Shown here one piece after another: positions 1 through 917 of a stretch of 917 nt of DNA. The translations under genes were made by a program, and so were the position numbers. Within the stretch, counting starts at the first letter, position 1. Each line of letters begins with the position of its first letter. Location: the sequence record AF056279.1; one strand, 5' to 3'. This stretch comes from a phage. The notes under the pieces are model-generated. The model saw only the letters and a list, made by a program, of their open reading frames with translations. It ran no database searches and was not told where the DNA came from.

Positions 1-23
1 GCGTTAGCTGGCGTACAGGTCAA

Positions 24-37
24 TCTAGAGGATCCCC
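24..37. other. Polylinker-like string TCTAGAGGATCCCC (XbaI TCTAGA 24..29, BamHI GGATCC 30..35, then CC) overlapping the stop codon of the 25..786 CDS
   Basis: Exact 14-nt identity to the XbaI-BamHI-SmaI-half segment of the pUC18/19 and M13mp18 multiple cloning site (GTCGACTCTAGAGGATCCCCGGGTACC), recalled from memory. The adjacent CAGGTC at 16..21 also matches the neighbouring polylinker bases, but the SalI site is not intact (AA in place of GAC). On the other side the sequence diverges immediately after CCCC. Confidence 0.35.
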
Positions 38-786
38 TCTGACATTGCTTCATCATGCATATGTTTTTCCTCGTCAGTCATGAACTTATAAGGAATTGGC
101 ATACACTCGATTTTACAATAGGTTCTATACCAGTCTACAATATTCTCCGTGTTCATATCTTTACCAATGCCCATCATACCAAGATACATTCTAGCATATT
201 TTGGATTAGCACTCTGACCTGTTTTAAGGAAGAAATCTTTCTTCTTACCTTTCAGAGCTTCTATGAATGGTTTGATAGTGACGTTTGAACACTTCTTAAT
301 ATCTTCCCAAAACATCTCGTGCATCTTATGGAAGAATGCAGCTCGATCATTCGGTTTATCTTTGATATATTGTTCAACATGCTCAACTGTTACATCTTTA
401 ATAGACTCAAGATGATAATAGCGAACAAGAAGTAGTTTAGCTTCATACGCATCCGCATGACGTGGAGCACAATAATCTGGAGTTGAATGCAGAATAGCTT
501 TGATTCGCTCTTCTGTGTACTCTTTACCAGCACCTTCAATAGTTCCCCAGCTTTCGCTGAAAATATCAATAGTTGCACCTTGATCAAGCAAGTAATAACG
601 TAAAGTACTAGTATAGTTCCTGGATTCCAGTTCCCTGCGACGTGCGTATAATTGCTGTGCTAACTCCAGCCAACCTTCATCAATATTATATTGTTCAGAA
701 CCTGCGGAGAACCCACTAGTGGATTTATCAATAAAATAATAGATATTCTGAGCACCACGGTCGCGCCTGATTGCTTGGAAACGCAT
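25..786 (-). CDS. Hypothetical protein, 253 aa from first ATG (786..784) to TAG stop (27..25); family unassigned, possibly the C-terminal part of a helicase-like protein
   Basis: Longest ORF in the supplied six-frame track. A stop-free run this long is unlikely by chance in AT-rich DNA. Codon choice looks coding-like: Gly mostly GGT, Arg mostly CGT/CGC, and G is rare at third positions. The 5' boundary is uncertain: the frame is open upstream to 894, and no GGAGG/AGGA-like Shine-Dalgarno precedes the ATG (upstream mRNA-sense sequence ...AGTAATCAAGCGCCAAAC-ATG). The 3' end lies in a polylinker-like string. Confidence 0.75.
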   Translation of the reverse strand: MRFQAIRRDRGAQNIYYFIDKSTSGFSAGSEQYNIDEGWLELAQQLYARRRELESRNYTSTLRYYLLDQGATIDIFSESWGTIEGAGKEYTEERIKAILHSTPDYCAPRHADAYEAKLLLVRYYHLESIKDVTVEHVEQYIKDKPNDRAAFFHKMHEMFWEDIKKCSNVTIKPFIEALKGKKKDFFLKTGQSANPKYARMYLGMMGIGKDMNTENIVDWYRTYCKIECMPIPYKFMTDEEKHMHDEAMSEGIL

Positions 787-798
787 GTTTGGCGCTTG

Positions 799-816
799 AT
801 TACTGGTTCTAGTAAT
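799..816. repeat. Short inverted repeat ATTACT-N6-AGTAAT (6-bp arms, 6-nt spacer) in the leader region just upstream of the ATG at 786
   Basis: Plus strand 799..816 reads attactggttctagtaat and the two arms are exact reverse complements. The arms are AT-rich and no T-run follows, so it is not a typical intrinsic terminator. It could be a small operator or mRNA hairpin, or chance. Confidence 0.3.
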
Positions 817-818
817 AA

Positions 819-848
819 CAAATACGTTATCAAAGTAGTTAAAGTCAA
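819..848 (-). promoter_or_regulatory. Weak sigma70-like promoter candidate upstream of the 25..786 CDS: -35-like TTGACT (848..843), 18-nt spacer, poor -10 TATTTG (824..819)
   Basis: Read by eye on the minus strand. The -35 hexamer matches TTGACA at 5 of 6 positions, but the -10 matches TATAAT at only 3 of 6 and lacks the conserved final T. Position, roughly 35-65 nt upstream of the ATG, is plausible. Confidence 0.15.
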
Positions 849-857
849 CACCACTCG

Positions 858-917
858 TTACGGATGGGCTACATAATAAGCAATCAATTTGTTGTCAATT
901 AGACCTAGCAAAGAACG
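858..917 (-). CDS. Possible 3' end of an upstream gene running off the window edge: 19 codons (...RSLLGLIDNKLIAYYVAHP) plus TAA stop at 860..858; product unknown
   Basis: This is the only minus-strand frame open from the window edge, and it differs from the main CDS frame. It would leave a 71-nt gap (787..857) before the ATG at 786. Nineteen open codons are weak evidence on their own. Confidence 0.2.
   Translation of the reverse strand, partial: RSLLGLIDNKLIAYYVAHP

Follow-up and report, generated by a model that had tools for sequence, protein, structure and literature searches.

The window analysed here (the whole 917-nt stretch of record AF056279.1) consists of a phage insert at 37..902, a stretch of cloning-vector polylinker at 1..37 and an unassignable 15-nt tail at 903..917. 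The insert, read on the minus strand, was assigned to the D2 (obp) gene of phage BF23/T5; it covers codons about 632-920 of 929 and is bounded by AluI sites (AG^CT). A megablast search against phage genomes showed that similarity was confined, in every match, to window positions 37-902 on the minus strand. The best match was the gene 'obp' of Escherichia phage Bf23 (99.8% DNA identity, OR083247.1 57402-58268); altogether the window matched 450 T5-like records, and 448 phage records covered at least 80% of it. No signal above background emerged when the window was scanned for Rfam families, tRNAs and promoters or terminators. The plus-strand ORFs, all of 77 aa or less and antisense to a conserved coding region, were set aside.

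The 289-aa translation of the main frame matched PHROG 3712 ('replication origin binding') with E=1.3e-172, and the alignment ran from protein residues 1-286 against profile positions 636-921 of 927, straight through the first Met. The window peptide was 98% identical to residues 635-920 of D2, the T5 orthologue (AAU05245, AY692264 51489-54275). The obp gene of Bf23 has 929 codons, and an intact ORF of about this length is absent from the window, where codons ~632-920 only are present, the frame is broken at 894/895 and the sequence ends in vector. Judged by its sequence, the window holds a fragment of a PHROG 3712 member gene and not an intact gene. The positions of helicase motifs V and VI are the same as in T5 D2, but the window represents only the last third of that gene and, compared with it, lacks 1 nt near one end and has vector at the other. 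A homologous-protein search returned 3 partial proteins only; full-length relatives, of about 900-1030 aa, were obtained by an exhaustive representative search.

The naming of this gene is inconsistent among records. The D2 orthologue is named 'obp' in Bf23 (locus L001, 1108-3897; the T5 copy lies in locus L015, 90-2876), and orthologues elsewhere are labelled 'OriC binding protein', 'DNA primase C' or 'hypothetical protein'. In the Bf23 record, 'D2 helicase' is the label of another ORF, of 705 nt, located downstream (L001 4184-4888). Directly downstream of D2, T5 has an HNH endonuclease gene (L015 2881-3001) whereas Bf23 has a small hypothetical ORF (L001 3881-4114); here the two close relatives differ locally in their mobile-element content. 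A partial hypothetical protein of Enterococcus faecalis, recorded on a 757-nt contig, is a 188-aa fragment with 99% identity to the window peptide; T5-like phage DNA has probably contaminated that assembly or been mis-binned in it.

The sequence at the low-numbered end of the window is vector. Positions 1-37 align to a pUC/M13mp18-19-type polylinker, from the HindIII side to the SmaI half-site (...GCTTGCATGCCTGCAGGTCGACTCTAGAGGATCCCC), with the final 14 nt exact and mismatches rising toward position 1. Over 1-23 the polylinker is garbled; the exact part, 24-37, is TCTAGAGGATCCCC, in which the XbaI site (24-29), the BamHI site (30-35) and the SmaI half-site CC can be read. Shuffled sequences had a mean local alignment score of 8.2, the window one of 20.5, which none of 5000 shuffles equalled; the polylinker reference matched plasmid records at 100% identity. 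In the megablast search against phage genomes, window 1-36 matched zero records. The TAG stop of the 253-aa ORF (25..27, minus strand) lies within the vector XbaI site TCTAGA and is therefore an artefact. The final residues of this ORF, G-I-L, are likewise encoded by vector: the window reads ...DEAMSEGIL* (asterisk, stop) and Bf23 OBP reads ...AMSELGARNDSEE*.

In Bf23, an AluI AG^CT cut falls at each end of the phage match (window 37/38 and 902/903; L001 3000|3001 and 3867|3868). Since 5 internal AluI sites in the insert were left uncut, the digest was partial. At the SmaI junction (window 37/38), C4 was seen where C5 was expected, so the junction can be placed only to within 1 nt. At the other end, the tail at 903..917 had no phage match by megablast. 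Its similarity to the EcoRI-side arm of the polylinker was not significant (GCTAGGT/GCTCGGT, 6/7, with 31.7% of shuffles as good), and neither was its similarity to the upstream Bf23 DNA (89% of shuffles as good); the simplest view of the tail is that the read deteriorates there as it enters vector. An exact search of viral, genome and metagenome contigs for the vector-insert junction found zero occurrences.

Translation of window 915..25 on the minus strand gives FFARSN*QQIDCLLCSPSVTSGVDFNYFDNVFVITRTSNQAPNMRFQAIRRDRGAQN..., with a TGA at 897..895 (tca on the plus strand, 20 nt from the window edge) separated from the first ATG (786..784) by 36 open codons (894..787). The first-pass annotation, made from the letters alone, had described these 36 stop-free codons and the TGA at 895..897 correctly, and had also noted rightly that the 36 codons contain no ATG, GTG or TTG; the ORF listing opens at 786. 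Its term 'annotated start' does not apply, the codon being merely the first ATG in a stretch that carries no annotation. The vector sequence had gone unrecognised in it.

That annotation had further read the peptide across this ATG as resembling motifs V and VI of an SF2 helicase, and this reading was borne out: the PHROG 3712 match begins at residue 1 and the published D2 motifs coincide with the flagged segments. In T5 D2, motif V has been placed at residues 632-653 and motif VI, with the arginine finger, at 668-682 from an alignment with UL9 (PMC3632103). Since the window peptide begins at D2 residue 635, TSGVD falls inside the published motif V and QAIRRDR inside motif VI. By conservation and profile alignment with UL9, the motif V core SPSVTSGVDF (D2/OBP residues 643-652) lies at 841..870 and the motif VI core QAIRRDR (residues 674-680) at 757..777, both on the minus strand. 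The register that had been proposed for motif VI, QxxxRxxR, needs amending to Q-x-x-x-R-x-R, the UL9-type QxxGRxR pattern.

Conservation was examined in a family alignment of 43 representatives. In motif V (P0004 numbering), S644 was conserved in 39/43, P645 in 43/43, G650 in 40/43 and D652 in 38/43, and the Q, R and R of motif VI were invariant in 43/43 homologues. The invariant columns of the 43 were G405/K406 of Walker A, S468, D485/E486 of Walker B, D524, P645, Q675, R679 and R681; S644, G650 and F656 were nearly invariant. The flagged peptide thus contains those residues that are most conserved in the C-terminal half of the protein. Walker A and B, which the first pass had suggested looking for upstream, lie outside the window and were found in the Bf23 orthologue as GTGKT at 402 and IDECD at 483, aligned to UL9; their GK and DE are family-invariant.

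The family profile was also compared with proteins of known structure. D2/OBP shares an SF2 helicase core with the herpes simplex virus protein HSV-1 UL9 (PDB 9hgj, 9hgi, 9zgf, 9vjh; Pfam PF02399), and the profile matched HSV-1 UL9 in the PDB with E=1.8e-30, motifs I-III and V-VI being collinear. The second collinear stretch pairs kvdvLlcSPSvtsGVDF...rfQAlrReR with UL9 QYRVVIYTTVVTVGLSF...VYQSLGRVR. Within it, SPSvtsGVDF of motif V is aligned with TTVVTVGLSF of UL9 and QAlrReR of motif VI with QSLGRVR, the position of the UL9 G being R in D2/OBP. With an offset of 11 between PDB chain numbering and native UL9 numbering, the aligned UL9 residues are T348, T349, T352, G354 and S356 in motif V (337-357) and Q383, R387 and R389 in motif VI (375-393). 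The corresponding pairs (D2/OBP and UL9) are G649/G354, D651/S356, Q674/Q383, R678/R387 and R680/R389. In UL9, R389 makes contact with the gamma-phosphate of ATPgammaS (PMC12543377).

No similarity of fold or sequence to the UL9-type C-terminal origin-binding domain (UL9 536-851, with its RVKNL motif) was found. Full-length Bf23 OBP scored 30.5 bits against PF02399 Herpes_ori_bp (cut-off 20), a match that spans only residues 389-533, outside the window, and Pfam returned zero matches for the 289-aa translation even at E<=10. The helicase assignment was based on PHROGs, NCBIfam, the family profile and a structure model. The last of these is an AlphaFold2 (AF2) model of relative P0002 (79% identical), which from motif II to the C-terminus had a pLDDT of 91.6 and whose top Foldseek match in the PDB was UL9 (9hgj_A, E=4.9e-9), followed by BLM, Dbp5, RecQ5, UvrB and Mfd. 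In this model, the predicted structure contains the fold of RecA-like domain 2.

Similarity was also found to the CyRepA1 family of plasmid replication proteins (NCBIfam NF042913), which matched OBP 392-708 with E=5.9e-35 and window residues 2-87 with E=8.1e-9. The helicase core of CyRepA1-family proteins is similar to that of OBP, but the flanking domains differ; at 121 bits, OBP falls short of the cut-off of 200, so it is a relative of the family and not a member. CyRepA1-type and RepA-like proteins encoded by a Halomonas phage and by Pseudomonas putida (P. putida) have been cited as D2 homologues (PMC3632103). In the N-terminal about 380 residues of the full-length relatives, a region outside the window, DID...SSSAG...H motifs are conserved, and some distant relatives match DUF3854, Toprim_3 or RepB_primase in Pfam. 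These sequence features suggest that a primase-like module may be fused N-terminally to the helicase in this family.

Alignment of the window with Bf23 showed a single gap overall, at 894/895. The window, which reads ...TCAATTAG... here, lacks one nucleotide between 895 and 894 on the minus strand, the T of GAT (Asp634); its absence turns ...CTA ATT GAT CAA CAA... into ...AAT TGA CAA CAA..., which puts the TGA in frame. Among the matches listed, the span is one base longer in 40/40 relatives than in the window, and TNELIDQQIDCL is encoded across the site in 14/14 related loci. The undeleted form was present in 13 viral contigs, and searches of viral, metagenome and genome contigs found the deleted form zero times. 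Between the deletion and the end of the phage insert, beside the 15 unalignable terminal bases, there are 8 nt. In the other 857 nt, the sole substitution relative to Bf23 is at window 204; the minus-strand codon 202-204 is CCA (Pro865) in the window and GCA (Ala) in the Bf23 record, and Pro is encoded in 11/12 related loci. At residue 865 the outlier is thus the Bf23 record, and the window is not in error.

A clean middle with poor quality in the first and last ~20 nt is typical of one long Sanger-type read. We infer that the TGA most likely arose when base calling dropped a nucleotide in the tail of the read, and not by mutation of the clone. The window as a whole is, with high confidence, a single-pass read of a plasmid clone carrying a known D2/obp fragment, the TGA being most likely an error of the read tail. 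The insert is an 867-bp blunt fragment from a partial AluI digest of BF23 (T5-like) DNA, cloned at SmaI in a polylinker of the pUC/M13mp18-19 type, and on the window's minus strand it carries D2/obp codons about 632-920, out of 929. If the TGA is a read error, the clone would be expected to have GAT intact and the junction ...GGTACCC|CTAATTGAT.... The odd look of the sequence, with a start codon between two motifs and an in-frame TGA, results from the cloning junction, the vector and the 1-nt deletion at the read end.

The missing T could instead be a true frameshift, carried by the DNA that was cloned or by the phage stock it came from, making this a D2 mutant or pseudogene or a change selected during cloning in E. 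coli. The quality of the insert speaks for it, with 1 difference in 865 nt and a family-typical window residue at that position, but the deletion is so close to the insert end and to the unalignable bases at the record end, the deleted form is in none of the viral, metagenome and genome collections searched and the frame is kept in 14/14 related loci, that the explanation is an unlikely one. It would, moreover, remove motifs V and VI and the entire C-terminal domain of a replication helicase that is conserved in 448/448 related records. A genuine frameshift of a BF23 isolate or clone, in which D2 would be cut before motif V and either the C-terminal helical domain would be made from Met671 or the loss of D2 would be tolerated, is less probable still.

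Recoding, in which read-through of the TGA or a programmed frameshift would join the two parts of the gene, draws on the highly conserved reading frame that follows the in-frame TGA. However, the ORF of the relatives is uninterrupted, with GAT at this position, hence there is nothing to recode; the phage sequence upstream of the TGA amounts to just 8 nt; and T5 D2 was expressed as a single 928-aa polypeptide from a continuous ORF (PMC3632103). Recoding is accordingly highly improbable.

The idea that the gene truly starts at the ATG at 786, the first after a stop and the opening of the 253-aa ORF, with the motif-like peptide upstream arising by chance, has next to no probability: the 36 upstream codons are 100% identical to T5 D2 and hold the near-invariant S-P-S...G-V-D-F, Met occupies this column in 9/43 homologues only (Leu in 15/43), a Shine-Dalgarno sequence is absent from the 20 nt upstream of the ATG (CCAGTAATCAAGCGCCAAAC, read directly), all full-length homologues align through Met671 and the stop of the ORF is vector sequence. 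The ATG at 786 is not a start codon. By the family alignment, it encodes Met671, internal to D2/OBP, where the helix of motif VI begins (784..786, minus strand). Homologues beginning at this Met with no conservation upstream, which the first-pass annotation had named as evidence against its reading, do not occur; conservation is in fact highest in the 36 upstream codons. Of the four causes that it had offered for the interrupted frame, a truncated gene fragment combined with a sequencing error was sustained, and recoding and chance resemblance were not, the PHROG 3712 match (E=1.3e-172) going far beyond chance.

As to function, T5 D2 has been purified and is a bipolar SF2 DNA helicase (Wong et al., 2013, PMC3632103). 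The flagged peptide is the end of the second RecA-like domain, after which the all-helical C-terminal domain (D2/OBP residues about 695-920; 37..714, minus strand) follows. Motif V, with G649 and D651, would sit on a strand-loop facing the ATP/DNA site; R678 and R680 of motif VI would act as arginine fingers contacting the gamma-phosphate, and the fingers would link the hydrolysis of ATP to motions of the two RecA-like domains. These putative catalytic roles are derived from the UL9 structures and from the biochemistry of T5 D2. ATP-dependent DNA unwinding has been published for T5 D2 (PMC3632103).

The gene itself is already known and characterised, and its motif assignment was published in 2013, so that there is nothing new in the gene. 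The record, a vector-contaminated single-pass read of a clone in need of vector trimming, matters mainly as quality control. The first-ATG start and both stops of the window are artefacts of cloning and of the read ends and are not biological; annotating the 253-aa ORF, or calling the TGA a pseudogene or a recoding signal, would be wrong.
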